Sequence record: NC_028847.1
Origin: Escherichia phage QL01
Strand: one strand, 5' to 3'
DNA: 64,000 bases
Made by a program: the position numbers and the translations under genes. Below are positions 1,266 through 37,014 of this stretch, piece after piece; position 1 is the first letter of the stretch; the number at the start of each line of letters is the position of its first letter. Under the pieces are notes generated by a model. It did no database searches, was not told the DNA's origin, and saw nothing but the letters and a program-made list of their open reading frames with translations.

Positions 1266-2944
1266 TCCATCACCGTGAATCGTCCAACTTTCTTCATTTG
1301 AAGATGTTGGCCATAAGCTTGTGGGTCATGGTCTCGGTGAGAGATAATGAACACGTTCGTATCCTCAAGGCTATTCAAGATGGTTGCAATGGTCTTAACG
1401 CCTTCAGCGTCAGTAGCACTGTCAAATACCTCATCAAGAATTAACGTGCTGATATTAACACCTGATACCTTAGAAGCAATATCGCGCCATGTAAAAAGTA
1501 GTGCGATATCAATACGTGCTTTCTCACCCTGTGAAAATGAAGCATAACTAAAGTCTTCACGTCCACGTGATTTAATCGTCTCATTGAACTCTTCGTCTAG
1601 TGTAAAGACGTAGTCGGCTTCCATAATCTTCAAATAAGAATTTATCTGCTTATTAAAGATAGGAATGTATTTCTTAATAATGGAACCTTTAATACCAGTA
1701 TCCTTCAACATTTCTGTCAGAATTCCACGATGGTATTTTTCCATTACCAAGGACGATTTGGTAGAGACGATTTTATCAAGCTCTGCTTGAAGCGCGGCAA
1801 TCTCTTCGGCATTACTTACGAACTCAGCAGCTGCTTGGTCGATTAATACTTTAACTTTTTTAGCTTTCTCTACGGCAGTAATGGCTTGTTGCTTATGAGT
1901 AGCTATCTGAGATTTAATAGCCAGAGCTTTATTACGTTGTTCGGTTACTTGGTCCTTAATGAGCTTGAGTTCTTGGTACTGTTCGTTAATCTTATCCAAA
2001 GATTTTTGAAGCTCAAAGTTCTTATCCTTAATTTTAGTAAGGATATTTCCATGCTCTTCCAGTCCTTGCATACATGTAGGACAACTACCACCGGTTTCGT
2101 ATAATTTCACGACCTTAGTAAAGGTTGCCATATCATTCTTGATTGCAAATCCTTTATTGCTCAGGTCACTCATAGAGTTGCTAGGGTCATCATCGACGAT
2201 GACATTGAGTAATTCATCAGTCAGTTTTTCTATATTGCCCTTCGCAGTCCTGGCTTCTTTAACGAGCTCATCGTACATTGTTTGTAGACGTGCTGCGTTC
2301 TCACCTGATAATTTACGCTGACGTTCTTCGTTGTCATTATAAATTTTAATTTGCTGGATAATAGAATCCTGTTTAACGTCGATTACTTGGATTTGGCTAT
2401 TAGTCTCACGAATCAAAGATTTGTTCAACTTGTCCATATCCGCTAATACAGAAACCTCTAAGAGGTCTTCCACAAGCTTTCGGCGCGCAGGGGTCGACAA
2501 ACCCATGAAAGGGGTATACCCTGCTGTACCAAGTACGACAATCTGTTTGAAACTGGTATATGACATTCCGATAAGCTGTTCAAATTCTGCTTGGAAGTCT
2601 TTACTGCTGGCAGATTCATCAAGACGTTCACCGCCACAAGAGATTTCAAAAACGTTCGGTTTTTGCCCGCGCTTGATATAGTATTCTTTGCCATCATATT
2701 CCATCCACAGTTCGACCAAAAGGTCTTTCTTATTACTTGAGTTAATCAACTGCCCTTTCTTAACATCACGAAAAGGCTTACCGAACAGAGCAAATGTAAC
2801 GGCTTCAAGGAACGTAGATTTACCAGCGCCGTTTTTACCGGTGACTAAGGTCTTTTGGACCTTATCAAGTTGGATTGTAATAGGTTGCTGGCCTACCGAC
2901 ATAATATTTTTATACGTTACTTTCTTTAACTTAAACGTTTTCAT
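1262..2944 (-). CDS. 46: recombination endonuclease subunit gp46 (Rad50/SbcC-like ATPase)
   Basis: 560 aa; Walker A GKNGAGKST near N-terminus, long coiled-coil middle, ABC-type C-terminal region; same length as T4 gp46. Confidence 0.92.
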   Translation of the reverse strand: MKTFKLKKVTYKNIMSVGQQPITIQLDKVQKTLVTGKNGAGKSTFLEAVTFALFGKPFRDVKKGQLINSSNKKDLLVELWMEYDGKEYYIKRGQKPNVFEISCGGERLDESASSKDFQAEFEQLIGMSYTSFKQIVVLGTAGYTPFMGLSTPARRKLVEDLLEVSVLADMDKLNKSLIRETNSQIQVIDVKQDSIIQQIKIYNDNEERQRKLSGENAARLQTMYDELVKEARTAKGNIEKLTDELLNVIVDDDPSNSMSDLSNKGFAIKNDMATFTKVVKLYETGGSCPTCMQGLEEHGNILTKIKDKNFELQKSLDKINEQYQELKLIKDQVTEQRNKALAIKSQIATHKQQAITAVEKAKKVKVLIDQAAAEFVSNAEEIAALQAELDKIVSTKSSLVMEKYHRGILTEMLKDTGIKGSIIKKYIPIFNKQINSYLKIMEADYVFTLDEEFNETIKSRGREDFSYASFSQGEKARIDIALLFTWRDIASKVSGVNISTLILDEVFDSATDAEGVKTIATILNSLEDTNVFIISHRDHDPQAYGQHLQMKKVGRFTVME

Positions 2945-3165
2945 GTATTGTTCTCACGAATTGTTTGTTCAGCATATTCTAGCATTTCTTCGGAAGAAGC
3001 AAACACGTCGTCAAGTTCCATGGCCCATGAAACACCTTCAGAATATTCAGAAGTGACATACATAGTTCCGGTATACCAAGAACCATCCACGTCCCATTCT
3101 ACATTACCGAACCAGCCATCGCCAATATGAAAATCATGTTTATACATTTTCATCATTATAAGCAT
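2941..3165 (-). CDS. hypothetical protein (between 47 and 46)
   Basis: Minus-strand ORF in tight operon packing, 4-nt overlap with gene 46 start. Confidence 0.4.
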   Translation of the reverse strand: MLIMMKMYKHDFHIGDGWFGNVEWDVDGSWYTGTMYVTSEYSEGVSWAMELDDVFASSEEMLEYAEQTIRENNT

Positions 3166-3403
3166 CCTTGATGCATGATTCAGCCATATGAATTAATGTT
3201 TCTGGAGTATCATCTACCATTACATTAAAGCTAAATTCCACAGCCCAATCAGTAGCAACATAAACTTTAATAAGCTCGTTGGTATCGCGAGTGCTCACGG
3301 CTTCAAACCAGAACTTAATGATATTCGTTTGGTTATCGTCATCAATAACGATGCAGTCGTGTTCTAGTTCAAGGCCTGATTTTTTGAATTCATCTAAAGT
3401 CAT
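3140..3403 (-). CDS. hypothetical protein (between 47 and 46)
   Basis: Minus-strand ORF, 4-nt overlap with gene 47 stop. Confidence 0.4.
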   Translation of the reverse strand: MTLDEFKKSGLELEHDCIVIDDDNQTNIIKFWFEAVSTRDTNELIKVYVATDWAVEFSFNVMVDDTPETLIHMAESCIKDAYNDENV

Positions 3404-4422
3404 CGTGTAACCTCATTATAAAGTTGTGCGGTCATAGTCTTAAGGGCTTTAACATCGTCTTCAGTGTGGCCATCAGGAAGGGCATCGATATAATCATACA
3501 TCATATCCAAGAGGGACTTAACTTCATCTTCCTCTTCAGAATCATCGATATCAACACTGTTATCTACCTTAGACACAATACGTAAAGAGTGAACAACCTT
3601 TTCAAGTTCAGATTCGAACTTGGTAAGCCCGTCATCAATTTTATCGACTATAACACGAACCGCAATATTTGTAAAATCTTTGTAATCGATAGTCGCATTC
3701 GGATAATGAATCTTACGATGCCAACAAGTTTCATTGATGATGAAATCCATTTTATGGGTTTCTGTATCGAAAATCCAGAAGCCACGAGGGTCGTTCTCAT
3801 CACCTGCAGTCAGGGTCCATGGCGTACCAATATACTTGACGTTTGCTGCATCAGAAATGGTGTGGAAGTGACCAGACCATACTTGCTTATACTTCTTAAG
3901 GAAATCAGGTTCTAAACCATGTGATTTCATTCCTTTATAGAAATAGAAACCATTTAATTCCCAGTGGCCAATACAGAAATCGGCAGTAGTATTTTTGATA
4001 TGGTCCATGATATCAGTCGTGTTTTCTTCACACATCCATGGAATCAAATCAATTTCTGTACCATCAAAGTTAACCGTAGTAGGTTTCTCAATAACCTTGA
4101 TATGGTCGTATTTACCCAGAACTTCAGAAGCAGCGTTCGGTGTCAAGGTATTTTTGTAGTGTGCATCATGGTTACCAACAACAGTATACATGGTAATGCC
4201 ATTTTCTTTAAGCAAATCTGAAATATGTCTGGCAAATTCCATGCACTTATGAGTAATTGCTTTACGAACATCAAAAATATCACCATACTGAATCCAGACA
4301 GTGATACCATTTGCTTTAGAATAATTGATGGCGTCTTTAATGCCTGCCAATTGAATATTTTGCACCCAAGGGTCGTCGTTCTTCACTCCAAGGTGCCAGT
4401 CACCCGTATTAAGAATTTTCAT
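3400..4422 (-). CDS. 47: recombination endonuclease subunit gp47 (Mre11/SbcD-like phosphoesterase)
   Basis: Begins MKILNTGDWHLG (phosphoesterase motif I), GNHD motif downstream; ~340 aa; start taken at internal Met of ORF 3400..4494. Confidence 0.9.
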   Translation of the reverse strand: MKILNTGDWHLGVKNDDPWVQNIQLAGIKDAINYSKANGITVWIQYGDIFDVRKAITHKCMEFARHISDLLKENGITMYTVVGNHDAHYKNTLTPNAASEVLGKYDHIKVIEKPTTVNFDGTEIDLIPWMCEENTTDIMDHIKNTTADFCIGHWELNGFYFYKGMKSHGLEPDFLKKYKQVWSGHFHTISDAANVKYIGTPWTLTAGDENDPRGFWIFDTETHKMDFIINETCWHRKIHYPNATIDYKDFTNIAVRVIVDKIDDGLTKFESELEKVVHSLRIVSKVDNSVDIDDSEEEDEVKSLLDMMYDYIDALPDGHTEDDVKALKTMTAQLYNEVTR

Positions 4423-5026
4423 TACGTATCCGTTCCCACATTTTGGAGGCTGCTTTAGAAGCAGAGCCAGGAAGTTTACCTTTGACCCACCCATCAGGAA
4501 TATTAGATGGGTTAATCAGTTTATGTTCTATTCCGTTATTATACCACTTCCTGCCCTTATTATGACTAGATGCTTTATAATTAGGTGAACGACCTTCTAC
4601 ATATCCTTCGGGGACTGTAGGTGCAAAGGTTTGTTCTAATGTAATAGGATTATAGGAATGAATATACCCTTTAGCATTATGAGAGCCGTAAAGAGGGTGT
4701 TGCTCTTTAGGTAGCGAAAGCCCAAAGAATCCTTTAGGAGCTGCGACAGCCCTATTAAAGAATAGAGGATTTTGGGCCGCATTGGTTCTTAACTGGTACA
4801 TTCTTTCAGCTTCTAAAGCCTCTTCTCTTGTAGGGTGTTCACTTACAATACATGAGTCAAATAATTCTGGATGCTCTAAAAGCTCATTTTTATAGATTTC
4901 TTTATATGCTTTAGAAAGGACACTCCCGTGATATCCTTTTAAATGCTTCTCTAAAGTGGTAGACCCTATATAAAACGGTGGAAGCTTAGTCCCGGAATAT
5001 ATTGTCAGGTATGTGATGTATTTCAT
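4409..5026 (-). CDS. GIY-YIG family homing endonuclease (Seg-like), free-standing
   Basis: N-terminal YLTIYSG...PPFYIGST resembles GIY-YIG catalytic motif; C-terminal basic NNGIEHKLINPSNIPDGWVKG typical of homing-endonuclease DNA-binding modules; overlaps gene 47 start by 14 nt. Confidence 0.65.
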   Translation of the reverse strand: MKYITYLTIYSGTKLPPFYIGSTTLEKHLKGYHGSVLSKAYKEIYKNELLEHPELFDSCIVSEHPTREEALEAERMYQLRTNAAQNPLFFNRAVAAPKGFFGLSLPKEQHPLYGSHNAKGYIHSYNPITLEQTFAPTVPEGYVEGRSPNYKASSHNKGRKWYNNGIEHKLINPSNIPDGWVKGKLPGSASKAASKMWERIRNENS

Positions 5027-19765: not shown

Positions 19766-19822
19766 ACTGTTCTCCTCATTAGTTGATAGGTCTATAGTAT
19801 CATGTTCCTAGAGGATGTAAAC
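19766..19822 (-). promoter_or_regulatory. PeSL-like early promoter cassette (core ttgataggtctatagtatca)
   Basis: Core 19783-19802; gtaaac 19817-19822; minus strand GTTTAC-17 nt-TACTAT. Confidence 0.6.
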
Positions 19823-19830
19823 ACCTAAAC

Positions 19831-19857
19831 GAAAAAAGGTCCCACCGAAGTGAGACC
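19831..19857 (-). terminator. intrinsic terminator, GGUCUCAC-UUCG-GUGGGACC hairpin plus U6
   Basis: Plus-strand aaaaaaggtcccaccgaagtgagacc, directly after stop of gene 19863..20246. Confidence 0.6.
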
Positions 19858-28517: not shown

Positions 28518-29107
28518 TTACGGCATTCCTCAATAAACTCATTTAAATTCTGTTTGATTTTACCTTCGTCGTAAAGACGTTGTTGACGACGTAAACGCCA
28601 TGGCATTTCAATAGCCAAGCACCAAATACTTAAAGCAGCGCCAGCGGCGGCAAGGTTCATTAATCCAGCGCCAATAATAGTTCGTTCTAGCGCATCATTC
28701 CAGTTGGCATCGATTAAAAATGAACTCAGCACTAACATTGGAAGTAAAGTAATAAAATACGCTACAACATATCGTCCGAACGTAAGCCATTCAGTATCAA
28801 TGAGCCTGGCCTTTCCATCTTGGAGACAAATATACTTATCGTCAGTGCGAGTGATTTTCTTTACTGGTTGCCAGCCGTTTACAATATAGCCCATTTTATA
28901 TTCCTCAATTAAAAGCTGTTTCATTTCGGCAGTACAACCTGACCAATCTATTGTACTGGCTGAAATTCCTTCATCACCATCATCAATATTTCGCCAGGAC
29001 TTTTTAATAATCATAGTCTCACCACTTGGGATAATAATTCCAGCATTTTCCGACCGACGGATGAAGTTTGTATCAATACCCATACAACCAGGTTCATAAA
29101 GGGCCAT
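28514..29107 (-). CDS. hypothetical membrane protein (C-terminal TM segments)
   Basis: 197 aa; hydrophobic segments in C-terminal half. Confidence 0.4.
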   Translation of the reverse strand: MALYEPGCMGIDTNFIRRSENAGIIIPSGETMIIKKSWRNIDDGDEGISASTIDWSGCTAEMKQLLIEEYKMGYIVNGWQPVKKITRTDDKYICLQDGKARLIDTEWLTFGRYVVAYFITLLPMLVLSSFLIDANWNDALERTIIGAGLMNLAAAGAALSIWCLAIEMPWRLRRQQRLYDEGKIKQNLNEFIEECRK

Positions 29108-29793
29108 TACCAGCCCTCCATAGGGAATTCCAGATATACTTGAGCATTAACGCGGATTTCATTTGTAATCTTTTTAACACGGTCTGTATTACGAGACACA
29201 CGACCAAACCAGCGCCACCCGTTACTTACTGCACGAGAACCTGTATGCCATGTTTGCCAATCAAACTGGAGTAACGTGCGGTCAGGAGCATCCCACTTGG
29301 TTAATTCATTGGACTCAATTTTTTCCAGAACTTCTTTATGCCACTGGCGATAGATAAGTTCGCCTTCAGGAATCTGACTGAACTGTGCAGTTCCGGTTGC
29401 AAAATGAGTAGGACACACATCAGCGTTAACAAGACCAAGAATATGTTCAGAATGGTATCGAGGATTATCATAATCAGGTTGCCCTGCGGTAATAAAGTGT
29501 TGACCCACCGGAATATCCGGACGTGGTACATCATCATGGTGATAACCTGGGATAGCAGGATACCAGCCAGGCATTAACATGTGTACACGGGAATCAAATA
29601 CTACATCCGAGTCTTTCCAATCGTCAGGAAGATTTTGGATAAAGCTACGAGTAATTGGGCCGCCATTATCAAAAGCAAAATTCAAATCACAGTTAAAGAA
29701 CATAGGCTCGTTTTTAATCTGGTCGTTTTTAATTGCATGAGCAAAACCGCCTACTGCACGAGCTTGACTATTAAACACTTTAGAACTATTCAT
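29107..29793 (-). CDS. hypothetical protein (His/Asp-rich, possible metal-dependent enzyme)
   Basis: 228-aa ORF with SD GAGGAAA; no confident motif. Confidence 0.4.
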   Translation of the reverse strand: MNSSKVFNSQARAVGGFAHAIKNDQIKNEPMFFNCDLNFAFDNGGPITRSFIQNLPDDWKDSDVVFDSRVHMLMPGWYPAIPGYHHDDVPRPDIPVGQHFITAGQPDYDNPRYHSEHILGLVNADVCPTHFATGTAQFSQIPEGELIYRQWHKEVLEKIESNELTKWDAPDRTLLQFDWQTWHTGSRAVSNGWRWFGRVSRNTDRVKKITNEIRVNAQVYLEFPMEGW

Positions 29794-29807
29794 AATATTT
29801 TCCTCAC

Positions 29808-30020
29808 TTACTTTTTGTTGAAAAAGTACATTTTACCTTTAGGGGATAAGGATACACGAAGTGCGTTACCAATACCAACTGAACATTTAACCAGGTCAGC
29901 AGATTTCAATTCACCAAATGCTTGACGAAGGTCACCGTCACGAGTGTTAACCATCAGGCATTTAGCACCAGCTGCACGAACTTCGTTTAACATGTTGATT
30001 GCTTGGTTAGAAAGTTTCAT
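29808..30020 (-). CDS. hypothetical small protein (start MKLSNQ)
   Basis: Internal start preceded by GGAGAA SD and promoter cassette. Confidence 0.4.
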   Translation of the reverse strand: MKLSNQAINMLNEVRAAGAKCLMVNTRDGDLRQAFGELKSADLVKCSVGIGNALRVSLSPKGKMYFFNKK

Positions 30021-30086
30021 TTTATTCTCCATTTCACTCTGTTGTTTTGATAGGTCTATAGTATCACACCTATAGACCTTGTACAC
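30021..30086 (-). promoter_or_regulatory. PeSL-like early promoter cassette (core; IR AGGTCTATAG/CTATAGACCT flanking -10)
   Basis: Core 30046-30065; -35 variant GTGTAC (plus gtacac 30081-30086). Confidence 0.55.
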
Positions 30087-30098
30087 TGTTTTGTGCAA

Positions 30099-31058
30099 TT
30101 ATTTTTCGAAAGGACGAATTAAATGTTGGTTACGCTTAAACCGTTCAATGTAGTCGTTTTCACCTAAAGTCTTATACATATTCACTACAGCTTGGTAGTT
30201 TTCCCATGCATAAGTGCGGAACCAACCTGAAGTGATTGAGGTGCACACTTTCTCAAGGGCCATATAGAAACTTAATGATGGTGAAATATTGAAGTCATTA
30301 GGAACCTGTGAACGTTCTAGTGCCAGGACACAAGTTTCTTCATACACACCAGCCAGTTTAATAGCTTCAGGCAAAGCCTCGAACTTCTCACGAGAGGTCA
30401 TGACTTCAGAACCTTCCTTCATATAAAAGGTATATGCAGGGCGCCCTGCCAATGCCACTGCTTCATGAATAGAGTCATGGTCCAGCGTATAAATGGTATC
30501 ATTAAAGAACGATGATTTGTTTACGTCCAATTTAGGGTGAGAATAGCTCAACGTTTCTTTTTGACGTTGCAGCATAATTTCCTGGAGTTCTTCGTTAAGG
30601 GTGATACCTTTATTACGAAGGTATTTGATGTGTGACATAGTTTTCAAGAAGAACGGATTATTCTTAAGGAAACGATGAGAGGTTTTGATAGCCAGACAGA
30701 TATCAGGGGTGGCCCAATAGAAACCAGTAAGACGGTCCTTTTTAATATGATTTTCAGCATATTTCAGGAGACGATAGCTTGAAGTGAAATCTTCGTCTTG
30801 AAGCTCACCGGTAATTTCTCGTACGTTAGTCAGAGCACGAACGATATAAGCTTCAAAATAGGTTTCTTTACCATTATGCATACATTTGAAAGCCTGGACA
30901 TCAGGATTGTCAACGTGTACATGGGCGCCGAACATACGTGCTTTAAAGTGATTCCATGAGCCTTGGTCGGCAATGAAATCCCAATCAGAATTTTCGATAT
31001 GCTTACTTTCAATCAGACCAGCGTGGTGCAGTGCACGAGAACCAATAACTAACATCAT
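30099..31058 (-). CDS. hypothetical protein (start MMLVIGSRALHHAG)
   Basis: ~319 aa; SD GAGGAAA; no recognised motif. Confidence 0.45.
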   Translation of the reverse strand: MMLVIGSRALHHAGLIESKHIENSDWDFIADQGSWNHFKARMFGAHVHVDNPDVQAFKCMHNGKETYFEAYIVRALTNVREITGELQDEDFTSSYRLLKYAENHIKKDRLTGFYWATPDICLAIKTSHRFLKNNPFFLKTMSHIKYLRNKGITLNEELQEIMLQRQKETLSYSHPKLDVNKSSFFNDTIYTLDHDSIHEAVALAGRPAYTFYMKEGSEVMTSREKFEALPEAIKLAGVYEETCVLALERSQVPNDFNISPSLSFYMALEKVCTSITSGWFRTYAWENYQAVVNMYKTLGENDYIERFKRNQHLIRPFEK

Positions 31059-31077
31059 AATATTTTCCTCAGTAAAC

Positions 31078-31317
31078 TTAAATTTCAGCGACGTAATCGT
31101 TATGCAATTCCCACATATCATCAGAATTATTCTTAATGATAGGAATTATCTCATTAGAGATTTCTTCAGCATAAGGGTCATTGATACAGTGGGCATCTTC
31201 AAAACGAACACCGTAATCAGACTTCTTATAAGAGAAGCCATAAATCTTTTTAAACTTGGCGCGAGTAATGCGTACCGGTTCATTAGACTTATCGGACATC
31301 GGAGCGTAATACCACAT
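31078..31317 (-). CDS. hypothetical protein
   Basis: 79-aa ORF with upstream early promoter. Confidence 0.4.
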   Translation of the reverse strand: MWYYAPMSDKSNEPVRITRAKFKKIYGFSYKKSDYGVRFEDAHCINDPYAEEISNEIIPIIKNNSDDMWELHNDYVAEI

Positions 31318-31370
31318 ATGTTCTCCTCATGTTTGTGTAGGGTAATAGTAACATGATTTTCTAGAGTTGT
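31318..31370 (-). promoter_or_regulatory. T4-type early promoter (TGTACA -35-like, TGtTACTAT extended -10)
   Basis: Minus strand ...ATGTACAACTCTAGAAAATCATGTTACTAT...GAGGAGAACATATG. Confidence 0.4.
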
Positions 31371-31690
31371 ACATCACTTCTGCAATATTCTAAAAATAAT
31401 TTATCATTGTCTACTGTATCCCAACGACGCCAAGACGGGTTCCAGACCAAAGCGTTGTCACCACAATCATTGAGCTTAAAATGGTCGTAGTACATAGCTA
31501 TGTGTCTAGTCTCGTCACCAGAGAACCCCAGTATAGGCTCACCGCGGGTGTGATACATATGATGGTGCATTGAGAGGTCGCATTTGTAAAACATCTCACG
31601 TTTACCACGAACGAACAAGAAGGCCTGTCCATTCATATAGAATTCTTTATTTGTTTTCAAAAGATATTTGAATACTGAATCTTTATGCAT
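31361..31690 (-). CDS. hypothetical His-rich protein (start MHKDSVF)
   Basis: Internal start with AGGAGG SD; HHHMYH cluster. Confidence 0.4.
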   Translation of the reverse strand: MHKDSVFKYLLKTNKEFYMNGQAFLFVRGKREMFYKCDLSMHHHMYHTRGEPILGFSGDETRHIAMYYDHFKLNDCGDNALVWNPSWRRWDTVDNDKLFLEYCRSDVQL

Positions 31691-31720
31691 AAGTCCTCCT
31701 ACCACATCCATGTGGTTAAA

Positions 31721-31948
31721 TTATTTTCCTAACGAAATACGAGTAGGTTTTTTACCGAAATAGTCTTCATAAGAACCATCTAAACGACCTGCTTTAGACC
31801 GACAATATGAATCGTACTTTTTGTAATAAGTCATCTCAGTATTATAACGCGGGTGTCTATCAGCCATAATAATACTTAACGGCCAACCTTTGGCATAATC
31901 GCGAAGACCATTTATTTTACGAATGTATCTTTTCTTTAATTTTAGCAT
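31721..31948 (-). CDS. hypothetical basic protein
   Basis: 75-aa ORF; start overlaps stop of upstream paralog. Confidence 0.4.
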   Translation of the reverse strand: MLKLKKRYIRKINGLRDYAKGWPLSIIMADRHPRYNTEMTYYKKYDSYCRSKAGRLDGSYEDYFGKKPTRISLGK

Positions 31949-32166
31949 GAGCTCGGATACCAGATTTTACCATCGGCCTGAGCAACGAAGGTGCGACCAG
32001 CTTCTTCGCCATAACACGAGCTATTCAGCCAATCTTCGAGACGAACTTCACCGTCATAATCGTCGAGCTCAACACCAAAACTTTGAGCAGAAGCCATATC
32101 TTTTACTTTCTTATACAGTGCAGCCAGTTCAAGTGCAGCTTTTTCTAATTCATTAATATCAGACAT
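31942..32166 (-). CDS. small acidic protein, paralog family member 1 (C-terminal W-Y-P-S-S-C)
   Basis: 74 aa; ends GKIWYPSSC. Confidence 0.5.
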   Translation of the reverse strand: MSDINELEKAALELAALYKKVKDMASAQSFGVELDDYDGEVRLEDWLNSSCYGEEAGRTFVAQADGKIWYPSSC

Positions 32167-32177
32167 TTTTTATCACC

Positions 32178-32390
32178 TTAGCAAGACATAGAGGATGTAA
32201 ACCAGAAACCTTCACCTTCCGGAATACCGTAGTCATCACGGACCCATTCGTAATCATCATATTCCGGGTTCTTTGGAGAAATGTATTCTCCACGACCAGA
32301 AACACGGAACTCTTCACCCGTTTCGTCAGCCACAGACTGGCCTTTACGTACTAATTCACGGATTTGGTTTTCAATTTCATCAATAGTCAT
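32178..32390 (-). CDS. small acidic protein, paralog family member 2 (C-terminal W-F-T-S-S-M-S-C)
   Basis: 70 aa; ends GFWFTSSMSC; stop embedded in TAAGG SD of next gene. Confidence 0.5.
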   Translation of the reverse strand: MTIDEIENQIRELVRKGQSVADETGEEFRVSGRGEYISPKNPEYDDYEWVRDDYGIPEGEGFWFTSSMSC

Positions 32391-32399
32391 TTTATTTCC

Positions 32400-32681
32400 T
32401 TAACATTCAGAAGAAGAGGACACCCAACCACCATTTTCTAGGCTGGTAGTGTAATCATGTTGGTTTACAATAGCGTACTGAGCTTCACCGTATTCTTCCC
32501 AGTGGGCAAGGTCGGCTTTCAAGGCGCCAGGAGAATAATAGTCACCGCCCATACCGCGAGCAGGGTATATATTAAAATGAGTCTCATATTTGTTTGCAAT
32601 TTCCTCGGCACGACGAATAGCTTTATGGATATCATTTACTGCTTCAGCCAATTCTTTATTTTTATGGTAATCATTCATCAT
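32400..32681 (-). CDS. small acidic protein, paralog family member 3 (C-terminal W-V-S-S-S-S-E-C)
   Basis: 93 aa; ends GGWVSSSSEC. Confidence 0.5.
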   Translation of the reverse strand: MMNDYHKNKELAEAVNDIHKAIRRAEEIANKYETHFNIYPARGMGGDYYSPGALKADLAHWEEYGEAQYAIVNQHDYTTSLENGGWVSSSSEC

Positions 32682-32690
32682 AGCGTTTCC

Positions 32691-32981
32691 TTAGCACATT
32701 GCCGAAGAGGAGATCCAAGCACCAACTGTAACGACGCCATTTTCAACTTCACCACCGTTGTTTTCAATTTCATCTTTAAACCACTGGGAGCATTCATAAC
32801 CGACAGGATAATATGTACGGCCTGAACCATAATCACCAGTACCGAATTGGATACCATACTTATCGGCAATAGCTTCACATTCATGTTCGATGGTATTCAC
32901 TTTATTCAGAAGAGCATAGATAGCCTTTTCTGCAGATTTCTCGTCATTGTGTTCCGGGATTTCAATTTCAATTTTATTCAT
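32691..32981 (-). CDS. small acidic protein, paralog family member 4 (C-terminal W-I-S-S-S-A-M-C)
   Basis: 96 aa; ends GAWISSSAMC. Confidence 0.5.
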   Translation of the reverse strand: MNKIEIEIPEHNDEKSAEKAIYALLNKVNTIEHECEAIADKYGIQFGTGDYGSGRTYYPVGYECSQWFKDEIENNGGEVENGVVTVGAWISSSAMC

Positions 32982-33331
32982 GATTTACATTCCTTAATAA
33001 AGGTTTCAAGGTCATTACGTTTAGTTTGTTTTACATACTCATTATAATTAGCCATAGCTAAAGCATATCTCTTTTTACGTGGCTTGTTTATTTTATTAGT
33101 TTGGGCAATATCAAAGACCCATGGGATAAAAAATCCTATTAAAGCCGGAACCCAAATCCATGCAAGGCTCATATCTTCAAACGGATGGCGAGGCATACCA
33201 TTAATAATCCCACCGACAAGAAATCCAATTATCCCTGCAGTCATACTAGTAGCAATGCCGAGGAATAAGGAAATAGCTATATCATAATCTGCTAATGCGT
33301 AACCAGGGTCGGTTTTACTAGGCTTATGCAT
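32978..33331 (-). CDS. hypothetical membrane protein (2 TM; start MHKPSK)
   Basis: Internal start with AAGAGG SD; two long hydrophobic segments. Confidence 0.45.
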   Translation of the reverse strand: MHKPSKTDPGYALADYDIAISLFLGIATSMTAGIIGFLVGGIINGMPRHPFEDMSLAWIWVPALIGFFIPWVFDIAQTNKINKPRKKRYALAMANYNEYVKQTKRNDLETFIKECKS

Positions 33332-33788
33332 TTTGAACCTCTTTAGCGTATTCGCGACATTCAGTAATAAAACGATTAAGTTTACGTTGTTGTTTACGAA
33401 TCTCTGATGTATACTCATTGGCTAAAATAATAAGCTCATCTTTATCGTAATTTTTAATATCCGAATAACTCGGGCGGCGGTCGACCATACCAAAGTGGTC
33501 ACCATTTTCTAACATCAAATAGCATACTAAATGGTAATCATCGTCGGCATCAACAAGCTGTTTATAATCGCTTGGTTCATTTAAAGAGTATACTGAATAG
33601 CGTAGCTCAGCTAAAGCAAAGATAAAGGGTAATTTGGTAGTATGCTCACGGCTAGATGTTCTGCTTAAGAAATCGTTTGAATAGCCTAGGTCTTGGCGAA
33701 TTCTATAAAGAACTGAATTGGTTTCATGGGAAAGACCACTATTTTTAAACCAATCAATATTTGATATCAGGTCGTCGTATAAACTCAT
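33324..33788 (-). CDS. hypothetical protein
   Basis: 154-aa ORF. Confidence 0.45.
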   Translation of the reverse strand: MSLYDDLISNIDWFKNSGLSHETNSVLYRIRQDLGYSNDFLSRTSSREHTTKLPFIFALAELRYSVYSLNEPSDYKQLVDADDDYHLVCYLMLENGDHFGMVDRRPSYSDIKNYDKDELIILANEYTSEIRKQQRKLNRFITECREYAKEVQNA

Positions 33789-33804
33789 AATATTCTCCTC
33801 TCCT

Positions 33805-33829
33805 CCAAATAGGGAGACCGAAGTCTCCC
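33805..33829 (-). terminator. UUCG-loop hairpin (GGGAGAC-UUCG-GUCUCCC) after gene 33837..34430; weak U-tract
   Basis: Plus-strand gggagaccgaagtctccc; may be partial terminator or RNA-stability element. Confidence 0.4.
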
Positions 33830-33836
33830 GGTAACA

Positions 33837-34430
33837 TTACTTAAGTGAATTAATGTAGTCTTCGATATCAGCAGAAGTCGTATCCATTCCAACTTGCGGG
33901 CCTTTAAACGTTTCTACGCGCAGTAGGGTGTCTTCAATATCAATCTTGGTCAGTGCAGCGATTTCAACAACATCGTCGGCAGTAGCAATACCAAGGGCAG
34001 CCATATTACGAGTTTCACGGATGTACTCGAGCTTAACAGCCAGTTCCTGACGAGAGTCATCAAGTTCCTTAACCTTCAGTTTAATTTCATTACGCATTTC
34101 GATATAATCATCGGCTTTCTTCCGAAGCTGAGTAGCTGTACGACGATAAAGGAGACCGAGTTTAGCATGTACCTGGACATCAGAGCCTTCGGCAATCAGT
34201 TTACGAATTTCACGTTCTTTAGAAGCAGCGAGCTGGTCCTTTTCATTAGCCAAAGCACGAATACGTTTTTCTTCATTCACAGACTTAACATGAGCAGTCT
34301 GGAGTTCAGTGATTTTATCAATCAGAGTAGAAGCAGCTTTGGTGTATTGGTCTTCGATTGACAGGTTCTGAGTCATTGCGGTGCCCAGTTTAGAACGAAT
34401 GAATTCAACGATTTTCTTTAAAGTGTTCAT
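33837..34430 (-). CDS. hypothetical coiled-coil protein
   Basis: 197 aa, almost entirely heptad-like. Confidence 0.45.
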
Positions 34431-34503
34431 AGTATTTCCTTCAGTTGGTTAACGTTTTGTAATCCATGAGGACATTATACCCTGTCCTCTGAGGTTTGTA
34501 AAC
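34431..34503 (-). promoter_or_regulatory. T4-type early promoter (GTTTAC-17 nt-TATAAT) with IR GAGGACA/TGTCCTC flanking -10
   Basis: gtaaac 34498-34503; arms 34468-34474 and 34483-34489. Confidence 0.5.
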
Positions 34504-34506
34504 ATT

Positions 34507-34905
34507 TTATTTCATTTTTGCGAGGCAGATTTCATTGGCTTCCCATTGAGCTTGCTTAATAATAGCTTTGGATACAGGAACCCTTTGGCCATAAGTTTTT
34601 GATGTTGAGAGAACAATATGTTTGTTTGCTTCATTATGCCAGCCCCATGATTTTTCGCCATGAGTACCTTTAACTACAGCTGACACCTCAACAGAGCAAC
34701 CACCATCAGAAATCTTGGTTTCGACAACCCATTCATTTCTCTCGACAGCTTCAATTTCCAATCTAGTTTTTTCTTCATACATCGCGGCCCAATCAGTTTT
34801 TGCCAAGTTGAAAGCAAGAGCTTTCTCTAATTCTTTGGCATATTTTTGTTGTTCGGGTGTTAATGAATTATACAACTCTTGCATTTCTTTATCTTCGATA
34901 TTCAT
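34507..34905 (-). CDS. hypothetical protein
   Basis: 132-aa ORF. Confidence 0.45.
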   Translation of the reverse strand: MNIEDKEMQELYNSLTPEQQKYAKELEKALAFNLAKTDWAAMYEEKTRLEIEAVERNEWVVETKISDGGCSVEVSAVVKGTHGEKSWGWHNEANKHIVLSTSKTYGQRVPVSKAIIKQAQWEANEICLAKMK

Positions 34906-34961
34906 TATGTTCTCCTCAAATTATGGGGCTCATAATATCTTAATAATGAGCCCATGTAAAC
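34906..34961 (-). promoter_or_regulatory. T4-type early promoter (GTTTAC, TATTAT) with IR flanking -10
   Basis: gtaaac 34956-34961; near-palindrome atggggctcat / atgagcccat. Confidence 0.45.
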
Positions 34962-34964
34962 GTT

Positions 34965-35228
34965 TTATTTCATATTATTGAAATAATTTTCTGCATCAAA
35001 ATCACTACCATGGTAAACTTTGGTAGACGATTTGGCGTAACCTTCAGCTGAGAACATATTAATCACAACTTTAATTGTATACCACTGTCCATCTTCATTA
35101 CCCATTACTGCATAGGTTTCATACACCGGGTGTTCAGGACCGATAACCTTAATATCGTTAACTGTGGCACCAAATTCTTCCGGAACACATTTCATAAAGA
35201 AATTAAACACTTCACCATAATTATCCAT
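34965..35228 (-). CDS. hypothetical protein (start MDNYGEV)
   Basis: ATG start with AAGGAG SD; ORF-track start is a GTG 5 codons upstream. Confidence 0.4.
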   Translation of the reverse strand: MDNYGEVFNFFMKCVPEEFGATVNDIKVIGPEHPVYETYAVMGNEDGQWYTIKVVINMFSAEGYAKSSTKVYHGSDFDAENYFNNMK

Positions 35229-35292
35229 TTTACTCTCCTTCACTCTGTTGTTTTGATAGGTCTATAGTATCATGTTCTACGAAAGAGTAAAC
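35229..35292 (-). promoter_or_regulatory. PeSL-like early promoter cassette (core ttgataggtctatagtatca)
   Basis: Core 35253-35272; gtaaac 35287-35292. Confidence 0.6.
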
Positions 35293-35315
35293 ATCTTTTT
35301 TAAACCTTTTAGAAA

Positions 35316-35345
35316 CAAAAAAGGCCCAACCTTTCGGAAGGGCCT
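35316..35345 (-). terminator. intrinsic terminator (GGCCC...GNRA-loop...GGGCC plus U6)
   Basis: Plus-strand aaaaaaggcccaacctttcggaagggcct after gene end 35350. Confidence 0.55.
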
Positions 35346-35349
35346 AGAA

Positions 35350-35904
35350 TCAGTTCTTGTAGAACCGGAATGGGTTTATGTGGAAGGCTAACATAGCCTT
35401 AGGGATTTTACGAGACAAAAGGCTCTTAAGCTTCCAACCACAGTACACGCGAAGGTAAAAGGTAATCCCACCAACCTTAAGATATGGAACTGAAGCAAAT
35501 ACACCCCAGGCGTCGTCATTCCACATCCATAACCACCCGTGATGAGCTTTATCAGGAGAACCGGATTCCACGTCGGGATTACCTCGATAATGGAATTCCG
35601 AGCTACAATCACGACCGAGTTTATGGTAAGCAAAGTTATAAGCTTTATTTCGCCATAGCCAAGCTACTCTCTGAAGATAAACACCACCCGGCATTTTCCT
35701 GATGTTAGCCCAACGTTTAATATGACCTTTATCACCGTCAATTGGATTATCGTATGTCATCATCCAATCAAAGCCGTACGGTAATTTACCTGTCTTTTTA
35801 TTGTGGAAAGGAACCACAAATGGTGCAAGGATAACAGCCAGAACCATAGAGATAAAATCCAGTGGAACCAACAGAACCCAACTCAAATATTTTAAAAGTT
35901 TCAT
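35350..35904 (-). CDS. hypothetical membrane protein (N-terminal TM; start MKLLKYL)
   Basis: Internal Met directly after upstream terminator; ORF track extends to 36009 through the hairpin. Confidence 0.4.
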   Translation of the reverse strand: MKLLKYLSWVLLVPLDFISMVLAVILAPFVVPFHNKKTGKLPYGFDWMMTYDNPIDGDKGHIKRWANIRKMPGGVYLQRVAWLWRNKAYNFAYHKLGRDCSSEFHYRGNPDVESGSPDKAHHGWLWMWNDDAWGVFASVPYLKVGGITFYLRVYCGWKLKSLLSRKIPKAMLAFHINPFRFYKN

Positions 35905-35917
35905 ATATTTCTCTAAG

Positions 35918-35945
35918 TTAACCAAAAAGCCCCAGACGGGGCTTT
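35918..35945 (-). terminator. intrinsic terminator (AAAGCCCC-GUCU-GGGGCUUU plus U-tract)
   Basis: Perfect 8-bp stem directly after internal-protein gene stop at 35948. Confidence 0.55.
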
Positions 35946-35947
35946 CG

Positions 35948-36412
35948 TTATTTGATTTGTTTAGCAGACCAGATACGGTCTTTGATGATTTTCTGAATAT
36001 CTTCAACATACTCTAAGTCGTGAGCATGTGGATTATCTTTGAAGCTATGTGCTCGTGCCAGTTTCTGGCCTTCTGTTTTGATTACTAAAAGCTCTTTAAG
36101 AATTGCTTCATACTTAGAAATAATTCCTTTGGCGATATTTTTTTCTTGAGCGGCTTTAGGGTCCGCTTTTGACGCAGGTGCTTTACCTGTAGCTTTCTGG
36201 AACAATTCACCTGAGGCAGCTAGGCTTTTAAAAACTCGGCTAACAGTATTGGCATTAGTAAAACCTTCGGCTTTAAAATCTTTAATAAAACGGAAACGTT
36301 CTTCATCAGAGGCGTCTTTGTAAGAATATTTACCTGCTTGAATTGCTGCAATCGCAGCGGCTTTTACATCTGAACTAGATTGTTCAGTCAAAAATTCATT
36401 GTAAGTTTTCAT
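35948..36412 (-). CDS. internal protein with capsid-targeting sequence
   Basis: Begins MKTYNEFLTEQS; 154 aa, Lys/Ala-rich. Confidence 0.65.
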   Translation of the reverse strand: MKTYNEFLTEQSSSDVKAAAIAAIQAGKYSYKDASDEERFRFIKDFKAEGFTNANTVSRVFKSLAASGELFQKATGKAPASKADPKAAQEKNIAKGIISKYEAILKELLVIKTEGQKLARAHSFKDNPHAHDLEYVEDIQKIIKDRIWSAKQIK

Positions 36413-36857: not shown

Positions 36858-36932
36858 TGGTATCCCGCCCTGGGATCGAACCAGGACCGCAAACTTAGAA
36901 GGATCGTATGCTATCCATTACACCAGCGGGAC
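36858..36932 (-). tRNA. tRNA-Arg (anticodon TCT), CCA encoded
   Basis: Minus strand GTCCCGC...anticodon loop CTTCTAA...T-arm CCTGG-TTCGATC-CCAGG...GCGGGAT-A-CCA; 7-bp acceptor stem with one G-U. Confidence 0.8.
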
Positions 36933-36937
36933 GTAGT

Positions 36938-37014
36938 TGGTGACCCAGACCAGATTTGAACTGGTAACCTTTCCCTTATGAGGGGACTGCTGCTAACCAT
37001 TGAGCTACAGGGCC
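36938..37014 (-). tRNA. tRNA with CAT anticodon (Met or lysidine-type Ile), CCA encoded
   Basis: Minus strand GGCCCTG TAGCTCAATGG...anticodon loop CTCATAA...T-arm ACCAG-TTCAAAT-CTGGT...CTGGGTC-A-CCA; one U-U mismatch in acceptor stem. Confidence 0.7.

Follow-up and report, generated by a model that had tools for sequence, protein, structure and literature searches.

Small cysteine-tailed phage proteins encoded upstream of a predicted MenT/AbiEii-like nucleotidyltransferase

In T4-like and other phages, genes for small proteins with a conserved Ser-rich, Cys-terminated tail are linked to a gene for a nucleotidyltransferase (NTase) that, by its predicted fold, comes nearest to the MenT/AbiEii toxins, which act as nucleotidyltransferases on tRNA 3′ ends. 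The linkage is strict, polar and reciprocal across unrelated phage lineages and points to an undescribed enzyme-plus-partner module. MenT/AbiEii enzymes are known in bacteria as toxins and as effectors against phages, and they prevent the charging of tRNA. According to our best reading, to which we assign a probability of roughly 45%, the four small proteins analyzed here are dedicated protein partners of the NTase encoded downstream in the same operon. They would be phage-restricted acidic α/β proteins of about 70–100 aa, translated from early/middle genes as four non-redundant paralog types, and would act through their Ser/Cys tail either as regulators or as acceptor substrates.

Gene array and transcription signals

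The window, i.e. the whole 64-kb stretch of DNA analyzed, derives from a Dhakavirus-type T4-like coliphage with 99.4% identity to WG01. A preliminary description had reported four minus-strand open reading frames (ORFs) of 96, 93, 70 and 74 aa at 31942–32981, each terminated by Cys, and these coordinates were confirmed. The locus comprises the following features:

34474–34502, minus strand: candidate early sigma-70-type promoter heading the transcription unit (TTTACA-17-TATAAT, 11/12 matches)
33041–33067, minus strand: candidate MotA-dependent middle promoter (TATGCTTTA - 12 nt - TATAAT; pattern scan, consensus match only)
32691–32981, minus strand: A-type Cys-tail gene, 96 aa, motif GDYGSGRTYYP, tail GAWISSSAMC
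32400–32681, minus strand: B-type Cys-tail gene, 93 aa, motif RGMGGDYYSP, tail GGWVSSSSEC
32178–32390, minus strand: C-type Cys-tail gene, 70 aa, tail GFWFTSSMSC
31942–32166, minus strand: D-type Cys-tail gene, 74 aa, end GKIWYPSSC
31078–31948, minus strand: three co-oriented small ORFs between array and NTase gene (ORF list), given singly in the next three lines
31721–31948, minus strand: intervening ORF, 75 aa
31361–31711, minus strand: intervening ORF, 116 aa
31078–31317, minus strand: intervening ORF, 79 aa
30099–31058, minus strand: partner gene, 319-aa DUF7277-DUF7275 protein, predicted MenT/AbiEii-like pol-beta-type NTase

The array forms a tight operon, as had been proposed: its stop codons abut the next Shine-Dalgarno sequence (TAAGGA, TAAGGA, TAAGGT), the ATG of the A-type gene overlaps the stop codon of the upstream ORF (ATGA), and the D-type gene, the last of the array, runs 7 nt into the ORF that follows. 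In the D-type protein, the tail motif occurs twice, as internal WLNSSCYGE and as terminal IWYPSSC. The candidate middle promoter is located about 60–85 nt upstream of the first small gene (96 aa), and a pattern scan of the minus strand from 29000 to 36400 revealed no late TATAAATA promoter. The three intervening ORFs match phrog_7065, phrog_9796 and phrog_3723, all of them families without assigned function. They were rejected as parts of the module; they share its operon but are not kept with it in other lineages, and in Aes012, phiPsa374 and UP17 the array directly adjoins the NTase gene.

The four proteins were also compared with the T4-type internal head proteins (IPs): the N-termini differ among the four copies, no IP family was matched, and the scanned minus-strand interval is devoid of late promoters. 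T4-type IP genes occupy the same genome region as the array.

A conserved paralog family

The preliminary description could not place the family and had called for profile and structure searches. By family HMM, all four proteins match phrog_899, a family without assigned function of which they are bona fide members (E-values of 2.8e-23, 2.4e-20, 6.2e-14 and 1.4e-9 for the proteins of 96, 93, 70 and 74 aa, respectively). Because they all match this one PHROG family, the four proteins are paralogous far beyond chance, as had been suspected. Pairwise identity of the other copies to the 96-aa copy is 22–32%, and the residues F, Y, W, G, W, S, S and the terminal C are invariant across the four. Sequence searches of Pfam, NCBIfam, PADLOC and PDB gave nothing significant for the four proteins, which also lack sequence similarity to MenA1, AbiEi or COG5340 and match no known defence or anti-defence family.

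The ORFs are coding and under purifying selection, with pN/pS values of 0.05–0.36 against the orthologues of KIT01 and Bp7 (A 0.05–0.08; B 0.13–0.33; C 0.16–0.36; D 0.07–0.27). Judging from bit scores, the paralog types A, B, C and D are ancient and predate the phage lineages compared. The A-type protein scores 57–65 bits with UP17_3 (rV5-like), Merlin_1 and Aes012_1 and at most 25 bits with its own paralogs, the D-type protein 45–63 bits with UP17_2, Merlin_3 and Aes012_2 and at most 16 bits with its own paralogs, and the B-type orthologue Merlin_2 reaches 103 bits. Since the types are older than the lineages, the copies are non-redundant, and their conservation across lineages speaks for a separate role of each copy.

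As members of the Cys-tail family, we considered proteins with W-x-[SAP]-S-S-x-x-C or W-x-x-S-S-C at the C-terminus or one residue before it, the gene of which precedes a DUF7277-DUF7275 gene in the same orientation. All four window proteins carry such a tail, and the array (31942–32981) lies upstream of the NTase gene (30099–31058) on the same minus strand. The family comprises at least 332 clusters at 50% identity. An exact C-terminal Cys is present in 172 of 183 members, while some members have an extra residue after the Cys or an internal motif. Members are acidic, with a median pI of 4.43 and values of 4.2–5.0 for the window copies.

The tail is the most conserved part of the family, and the shared ending noted earlier, with invariant W, S, S and terminal C, is real. 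The Ser codons of the tail differ between copies (TCC TCT / AGC TCA / TCC TCT TCT / TCC TCT TCG), and therefore the tail is conserved as amino acids and is not an artefact of a nucleotide repeat. For the A-type protein, AF2 predicts a confident small α/β fold (pLDDT 92) that has no relative in the PDB. The helical N-terminus and the Gly/Tyr-rich centre that had been described were both recovered, the former as a predicted helix at residues 14–42 and the latter as a Y-G-x-G-G-x-Y-like motif in 136 of 183 members. The tail is predicted to lie within the folded domain, as a strand (88–91) followed by a helical turn (92–95), with a pLDDT of about 77.

Linkage to the nucleotidyltransferase gene

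The NTase gene is located about 0.9 kb downstream of the array and outside the coordinates covered by the preliminary description. Related loci were sought with the NTase alignment and with a degenerate DNA pattern. In a set of 80 NTase loci that includes close relatives, Cys-tail ORFs were found upstream on the same strand in 70 loci at E ≤ 1e-3 and in about 75 with relaxed criteria; they were on the opposite strand in none and downstream in one. Reciprocally, an NTase gene follows all 20 of the 20 Cys-tail arrays with enough downstream sequence. The pair occupies the e-tRNA region in Tevenvirinae and the nrdD-nrdC region in Aeromonas phage Aes012, and also occurs in Otagovirus phiPsa374, Stephanstirmvirinae UP17, the jumbo phage 7t3, contigs of about 360 kb and MAG contigs. 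T4-like, rV5-like, Pseudomonas, Acinetobacter and jumbo phages are among the carriers, and the enzyme was present in 732 phage records. The number of Cys-tail copies is 1–5 per enzyme and varies even among close relatives (four versus five); in ST0, one copy is frameshifted.

In T4, neither HMM matches within 1–76 kb at E ≤ 10. For the same reason, T4 nrdC.3 (308 aa), a candidate homolog by size, was rejected. Literature searches for phrog_899, DUF7275/DUF7277, phage proteins with a C-terminal cysteine and phage DUF1814 gave nothing relevant, and no published statement linking phrog_899 with DUF7277/DUF7275 was found.

The enzyme belongs to Pfam DUF7277 and DUF7275 (phrog_2141), database families without assigned function of which it is a bona fide member. 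Its predicted fold is that of a MenT-like NTase built on a pol-beta catalytic core, and its catalytic triad is intact. Searches of Pfam, NCBIfam and PADLOC returned only DUF7275/DUF7277 and no sequence match to DUF1814/AbiEii even at E ≤ 10; hence it is not a member of DUF1814, and the likeness to MenT/AbiEii is one of fold. A large extra helical region is extremely conserved (DHD..H, EE, ER, Cys), and a Cys (C272; C243 in most) is invariant, as are several His residues; these are possible metal ligands. Residues R165, Y172, H174, P175, C272, S277 and R281 are kept only in homologs with Cys-tail partners, in a comparison of three versus three sequences that is confounded by phylogeny. NTases paired with strictly conserved tails are only about 41% identical to one another. 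Control by auto-phosphorylation as in MenT1/MenT3 was not supported by the alignment, which has no conserved Ser/Thr just before D-x-D. Both tRNA genes of the window already encode CCA and are thus uninformative on tRNA CCA addition.

Comparison with known systems

The closest parallel is MenA1-MenT1 of Mycobacterium tuberculosis, in which a small helical partner is likewise encoded upstream: MenA1 is a 68-aa antitoxin that blocks the active site of MenT1 (PMC10435456, PMC11375011). However, neither phage component is related to MenAT1 at the sequence level, and the 319-aa phage enzyme has the large extra helical region. The phage module comprises one to five non-redundant partners, whereas MenAT1 has one; the partners are α/β domains with an invariant Ser/Cys tail, whereas the C-terminus of MenA1 is dispensable; and the module is phage-borne, whereas MenAT1 is a chromosomal toxin-antitoxin (TA) locus. 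With the abortive infection system AbiEi-AbiEii (DUF1814), the module shares the NTase fold class and the gene order of partner followed by NTase. In contrast, the antitoxin AbiEi, a COG5340 winged-helix/transcriptional protein of about 200 aa, bears no relation to the Cys-tail proteins, neither Pfam nor PADLOC matches the phage NTase to AbiEii, and AbiE is a bacterial anti-phage system whereas the present module is carried by phages. No cognate antitoxin homologous to MenA1, MenA3/COG5340 or AbiEi was found.

A pol-beta-type NTase together with one or more small protein partners is also characteristic of MntA-HepT (MNT-HEPN type VII TA). There, the minimal NTase MntA poly-AMPylates its small partner HepT, which sets a precedent for an NTase that transfers to a hydroxyl of a protein. 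Tandem RiPP precursor arrays, e.g. of lanthipeptides, resemble the locus in having several small genes next to one enzyme gene and Ser residues N-terminal to an end Cys. They differ in that the Cys-tail proteins are compactly folded, the tail is conserved rather than hypervariable, and no known RiPP enzyme is nearby.

Interpretation

With respect to physical binding, tail role, RNA substrate and direction of regulation, we infer the following. Each small protein would dock on the NTase via its conserved N-terminal helix and Gly-rich core and would then bring its invariant W-x-S-S-S-x-x-Cys tail into the catalytic cleft or close to it; there, the tail may gate or direct nucleotidyl transfer to RNA 3′ ends, probably of tRNA. 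This partner reading is favoured by a pair that remains linked despite relocation of the locus, early and middle candidate promoters combined with no late one, a tail inside a folded domain (AF2 pLDDT 92) and paralog types kept across lineages, as well as by the MenA1 precedent and by the NTase residues kept only in homologs with Cys-tail partners. Several points count against it. Descent can preserve synteny in phages, and the 80 loci include close relatives; no known antitoxin arrangement resembles one with as many as five non-redundant partners per enzyme; and such strict conservation of the tail is more suggestive of a site of reaction or modification than of a simple plug. Neither do the small proteins resemble MenA1, AbiEi or COG5340, nor does the NTase match DUF1814/AbiEii in sequence.

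The alternative that survives best, although we regard it as rather unlikely, is that the small proteins are acceptor substrates and not regulators, the NTase O-nucleotidylylating Ser residues of the tail with one or several NMPs; this would yield modified effectors or carriers that differ in their bodies. Besides MntA acting on HepT, CitX provides an analogy: the acceptor there is a Ser of a small acidic carrier, to which CitX attaches a group derived from a nucleotide. However, the AF2 model places the tail in a folded domain and not in a free peptide, and Ser modification alone leaves the role of the terminal Cys unexplained. An extended version, which we consider unlikely, is that the MenT-like NTase nucleotidylylates the Ser-rich tail of the folded small proteins, possibly followed by elimination and attack of the terminal Cys, or by protein-primed oligonucleotide synthesis. 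Types A–D would each bring the modification to a host target of their own, or would join the enzyme in an assembly around a common Cys-ligated metal site.

We see a still smaller chance that the small proteins are host-directed early proteins independent of the NTase, with the linkage reflecting nothing but shared operon history. They could then mimic nucleic acids as acidic proteins, inhibit proteins of host defence or housekeeping, or act as nucleotide-signal sponges using the Gly-rich loop. Their acidity (pI 4.2–5.0 in the window, family median 4.43), the early- and middle-type candidate promoters and the position of the array in the hyperplastic e-tRNA accessory region are consistent with this, as are the variation between four and five copies in close relatives and the frameshift in ST0, which are typical of arms-race genes. 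The module is moreover accessory, because the first 76 kb of T4 lack it. But the linkage is polar and reciprocal and has outlasted both relocation and transfer between unrelated families of phages, the ancient paralog types have been conserved instead of turning over rapidly, and matches to known defence or anti-defence families were not obtained.

It is very improbable that the proteins are RiPP-like precursors, whose S-S-S-x-x-C end would become a C-terminal ring of the thioether (lanthionine) or AviCys type, perhaps followed by release of a short peptide. Ser residues 3–5 positions N-terminal to Cys do fit the classical lanthionine ring geometry, several tandem precursor-like genes adjoin one enzyme gene, and the invariant Cys (C272; C243 in most) and His residues of the enzyme could bind metal. 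Yet the whole protein including the tail is predicted as one compact domain, body and tail are conserved without a leader and a flexible, hypervariable core, and in some members one more residue follows the Cys or the motif is internal. Furthermore, the neighbours match only families without assigned function and include no LanB/LanC/LanM/LanKC/LanL/LanD, radical-SAM, YcaO or HFCD-type enzyme, protease or exporter.

The proposal that promoter-cassette sequence gave rise to the gene ends, with the shared tail as a by-product of a nucleotide repeat, is refuted. The exact 14-nt match GTTTACATCCTCTA at 32189–32202 and 19809–19822 stands, and its latter copy simply provides the -35 part (GTTTAC) for an early promoter of T4 type that follows a terminator. 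But the match occurs in only one of the four genes (C-type), where it is a chance coincidence, does not extend beyond 14 nt and is one of 167 14-mers recurring in the window, while other paralogs and orthologues encode the same tail by different codons and hundreds of distant phages keep it at the protein level.

Significance

The partner reading supplies a function-level hypothesis for three families without assigned function, phrog_899, DUF7275 and DUF7277. A phage-borne MenT/AbiEii relative with Cys-tailed partners would imply one of three options: tRNA 3′ ends may be manipulated by the phages themselves, be it for host shut-off, tRNA repair or counter-defence; the fold may have been taken over for the modification of proteins; or the pair may resemble a toxin and its antitoxin. 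Nucleotidylylation of the tail, if true, would establish nucleotide- or thioether-modified phage effectors as a class of proteins not known before. The module is missing from the early/middle region of T4 (first 76 kb), which would help explain its escape from classical genetics. If the linkage reflects function, the module would be widespread and unstudied, and many of its carriers are phages used or considered for therapy.

Gene array and genomic context

At 99.4% identity, the region matches Escherichia phages WG01 and vB_EcoM-E33 (Straboviridae, Tevenvirinae, Dhakavirus), whose records list the counterparts of the four Cys-tail ORFs as hypothetical proteins ORF129-132. The array lies within the hyperplastic 'e.x' accessory part of T4-like genomes, flanked by lysozyme/Nudix genes and e.6/e.8/tRNA genes. 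The four minus-strand ORFs of the preliminary description were recovered with exactly the same coordinates and lengths.

Features of the Cys-tail array and its surroundings
32691-32981, minus: A-type Cys-tail ORF, 96 aa
32400-32681, minus: B-type Cys-tail ORF, 93 aa
32178-32390, minus: C-type Cys-tail ORF, 70 aa
31942-32166, minus: D-type Cys-tail ORF, 74 aa
30099-31058, minus: enzyme gene, 319 aa, Shine-Dalgarno sequence GAGGA, downstream of the array in the same operon
33041-33067: candidate MotA-type middle promoter, TATGCTTTA-12 nt-TATAAT, just upstream of the array (consensus pattern match)
~34502 and ~34960: early-type promoters (pattern match)

The stop codons of the Cys-tail genes run straight into the Shine-Dalgarno sequence of the following gene (TAAGGA or TAAGGT), the ATG of the first gene overlaps the stop of the ORF before it (ATGA), and the last gene shares 7 nt with the next ORF. 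The array thus is a tightly coupled operon, as had been proposed. A pattern scan of the array strand from 29000 to 36400 detected no late promoter; together with the early and middle promoter matches, this points to probable early- or middle-period expression of the Cys-tail genes.

The ORF directly upstream of the array (32978-33418, minus; phrog_2330) comprises 146 aa from its first ATG and 117 aa in the WG01 annotation. It resembles a small membrane protein, and the candidate MotA promoter is located within its 3′ end. A perfect 6-bp palindromic hairpin (ACCACATCCATGTGGT, 31701-31716) spans the start codon of a 116-aa ORF (31361-31711); no T-run is present at this hairpin, which may be a translational control element and not a terminator. 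The only two tRNA genes found in the 64-kb window, Arg(tct) and Met(cat) at 36858-37014 (minus), both have gene-encoded CCA ends.

Paralogy and conservation of the Cys-tail proteins

The other copies share 22-32% identity with the first one; F, Y, W, G, W, S, S and the terminal C are invariant. Profile searching, as suggested in the preliminary description, placed all four in phrog_899 (PHROG, unknown function; E 1.4e-9 to 2.8e-23), and an HMM of the wider family detected these four copies only in the window. For each gene, pN/pS was between 0.05 and 0.36 relative to orthologues from phages KIT01 and Bp7, showing that all four are protein-coding and under purifying selection. Since the Ser codons differ among the four tails, the shared tail is conserved as protein and does not reflect a nucleotide repeat.

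The proposal that the gene ends were built from the promoter cassette near 19810-19822 had to be abandoned. GTTTACATCCTCTA occurs exactly at both 32189-32202 and 19809-19822, but it is found in only one of the four tails, the sequences flanking its two copies are unrelated, and 167 canonical 14-mers recur within the window, so that the match is regarded as coincidental. The cassette itself (19809-19850, minus) consists of a terminator-like hairpin (GGTCTCACTTCGGTGGGACC with a T-run behind it), a promoter (GTTTAC ... TACTAT/TATAGA) and an SD-ATG; its GTTTACATCCTCTA copy is the −35 region (GTTTAC) of this early-type promoter right behind the hairpin.

An exhaustive profile search (E ≤ 1e-3) for the family yielded at least 332 clusters at 50% identity; among the 150 matches listed, lengths were 64-155 aa and nearly all aligned through to the C-terminus. 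Within a set of 183 family sequences (median pI 4.43, median length 87 aa), 172 end exactly with Cys, which is the sole Cys in 90 of these. Of the Cys-ending members, 94% have W at −7 and 95% have Ser at −4 and −3; position −5 is S, A or P. Seven others (P0054, P0083, P0098, P0102, P0135, P0140, P0175) carry one extra residue behind the Cys (CS, CN or CR), mostly in an S-S-T variant. The copy of Acinetobacter phage Henu6 (locus L013, 3354-3557) ends with SASSENS and lacks the Cys, while a related contig has SASSENC.

In the family consensus, an N-terminal helix with AExIADExGxxFxF at its end is followed by a Gly-rich loop (Y-G-M-G-G-T-Y-Y-P), a variable acidic loop and the tail G-x-W-x-S-S-S-x-x-C. 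In the confident AF2 model of the 96-aa copy (pLDDT 92.1, pTM 0.78), a long helix (residues 14-42) lies against a small sheet, with the tail included in the domain as a strand (88-91) and a helical turn (92-95). The protein is thus predicted to be folded and no floppy peptide.

Paralog types across phage lineages

The A-type protein of the window scores 57-65 bits against its counterparts in UP17, Merlin and Aes012 and at most 25 bits against its own neighbours; for the D-type, the values are 45-63 bits and at most 16 bits, and the B-type reaches 103 bits against its Merlin counterpart. By these scores, the paralog types are ancient. As counterparts outscore neighbours, the copies are non-redundant, pointing to distinct roles or to a hetero-oligomer. 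Aeromonas and Karamvirus phages have a reduced set of A, D and enzyme. D-type proteins (window 31942-32166; L012 of UP17, 4368-4628; loci L010, 7528-7755, and L009, 7261-7473) contain the motif twice, as internal W-[LQ]-[NS]-S-S-C-Y-G-E and terminal W-x-x-S-S-C; therefore, the terminal position is not strictly required.

At short range, the array is dynamic. In some very close relatives, the B- and C-type genes are separated by an additional, fifth member (...SGTSWVSSSYEC; locus L017, 3457-3660), visible as a ~206-bp insertion in megablast matches H9, H10, H13, H17 and H18, and copy number is thus polymorphic within the genus. In Mosigvirus ST0 (L007, 7295-7575), the second (B-type) copy is frameshifted into two overlapping ORFs not annotated in the record and is apparently a pseudogene.

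Linkage to the enzyme gene

The 319-aa protein is made up of Pfam DUF7277 (E 2e-27) and DUF7275 (E 4e-77) and is equivalent to phrog_2141. Its gene also follows Cys-tail genes in ST0, Karamvirus EnC07, Moonvirus Merlin and a distant metagenomic contig; in Aeromonas phage Aes012, the pair is located in the nrdD-nrdC region and not in the e-tRNA region. Beyond T4-like phages, Pseudomonas phage phiPsa374 (Otagovirus) and coliphage UP17 (Stephanstirmvirinae) have three to five Cys-tail ORFs directly 5′ of the DUF7275 gene, and Henu6 and Salmonella jumbo phage 7t3 have a single copy each. The T4 early/middle region (1-76 kb) has neither gene.

Of 80 viral contigs of 8-371 kb retrieved via the enzyme (97% to 41% identity), 70 have one or more Cys-tail ORFs (E ≤ 1e-3) no more than 5 kb upstream on the strand of the enzyme gene, and ~75 are positive under relaxed criteria. 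None had a Cys-tail ORF on the opposite strand and one had it downstream. Copies per locus ranged from 1 to 5 (mode 2), with a median gap of ~600 bp to the enzyme gene. Reciprocally, a degenerate tail-coding DNA pattern retrieved 32 loci; the enzyme gene followed on the same strand in all 20 arrays with enough downstream sequence, and in the seven arrays without it, the stored downstream sequence was shorter than 700 bp. A search of 185,579 prokaryotic species genomes gave only five loci, each on a MAG contig, and in four of them Cys-tail ORFs lay directly upstream; the module is therefore essentially phage-restricted.

Properties of the enzyme

The enzyme has 1920 homologs, is present in 732 phage records and shows extraordinarily high conservation. 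Invariant G6, S7, D25, D27 and E69 constitute a pol-beta-type nucleotidyltransferase signature; K125, H128, R129, K139, D193-H194-D195, H198, E240-E241, C243, E248-R249 and C272 are also invariant. MenT toxins, members of the AbiEii/DUF1814 family, add nucleotides to tRNA 3′ ends. DUF1814 and other nucleotidyltransferase models gave no sequence-level match to the phage enzyme even at E ≤ 10; its relationship to MenT is one of predicted fold and catalytic core, not of family membership, and the fold-level comparison also includes other minimal nucleotidyltransferases. R165, Y172, H174, P175, C272, S277 and R281 are kept in homologs with partners and missing in distant, partner-less ones (Vibrio nt-1, Gordonia and Streptomyces phages), which keep the K/H/DHD/H/EE/ER core; this contrast of three versus three sequences is confounded by phylogeny and suggestive only.

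Genes recurrently located near the enzyme gene include Rnl1 and Pnkp in 7t3, an RNA ligase in Streptomyces phage Blueeyedbeauty, and tRNA clusters in a Gordonia phage and T4-like phages (RNA-repair or tRNA genes: L133 of 7t3, 1-2804; L014 of Blueeyedbeauty, 2872-3531; L132, 5847-8287). These are hints of an RNA/tRNA-related role or substrate, compatible with it and not proof. UP17 and 7t3, which are unrelated phages, both have a Ser/Thr protein phosphatase gene ~1-3 kb from the module, and in UP17 and nt-1 a Sir2-like gene lies ~2.3-2.4 kb downstream of the nucleotidyltransferase gene (phosphatase or Sir2-like genes: L012, 1534-2277 and 8221-9021; L133, 6706-7449; L131, 8156-8917).

Interpretation

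In the best-supported interpretation, the MenT-like nucleotidyltransferase encoded downstream has the four Cys-tail proteins as its dedicated partners. That the two are functionally coupled in some way is likely; that the Cys-tail proteins would regulate or gate the enzyme is the favoured but more tentative model, with a probability of about 0.45 for the full statement. The conserved helix and Gly-rich core would dock on the enzyme, and the Ser/Cys tail would enter the catalytic cleft and thereby gate it. This would be analogous to MenA1-MenT1, where the 68-aa blocker MenA1 places a long central helix across the active sites (PMC10435456) and also induces auto-phosphorylation of MenT1 (PMC11375011). 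Such gating is consistent with the acidity of the Cys-tail proteins, a hint of RNA 3′-end mimicry.

A model in which the tails are acceptor substrates, O-nucleotidylylated on Ser, better accounts for their near-invariance and for there being several non-redundant 'substrates' per enzyme; this main alternative is rated rather unlikely. We consider an independent action of the Cys-tail proteins on the host, set beside the linkage in 70 of 80 contigs, less probable still, and RiPP-like processing highly improbable. The obligatory Cys as last residue is, on present evidence, explained by none of these models; an intermolecular metal site or a disulfide might account for it, as might a thioether, with the conserved Cys272 (and Cys243) of the enzyme taking part.

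Databases contain the component families solely as 'unknown function'. In the literature searched, the phrog_899/DUF7277-DUF7275 families are not mentioned, and neither the linkage of Cys-tail proteins and enzyme, nor the MenT-like nature of DUF7277-DUF7275, nor the ancient A-D paralogs are described. The sequence criteria tested for MenAT/AbiE gave negative results, so that membership in this family is not established; the module is classed as a nucleotidyltransferase with small cognate protein partners.
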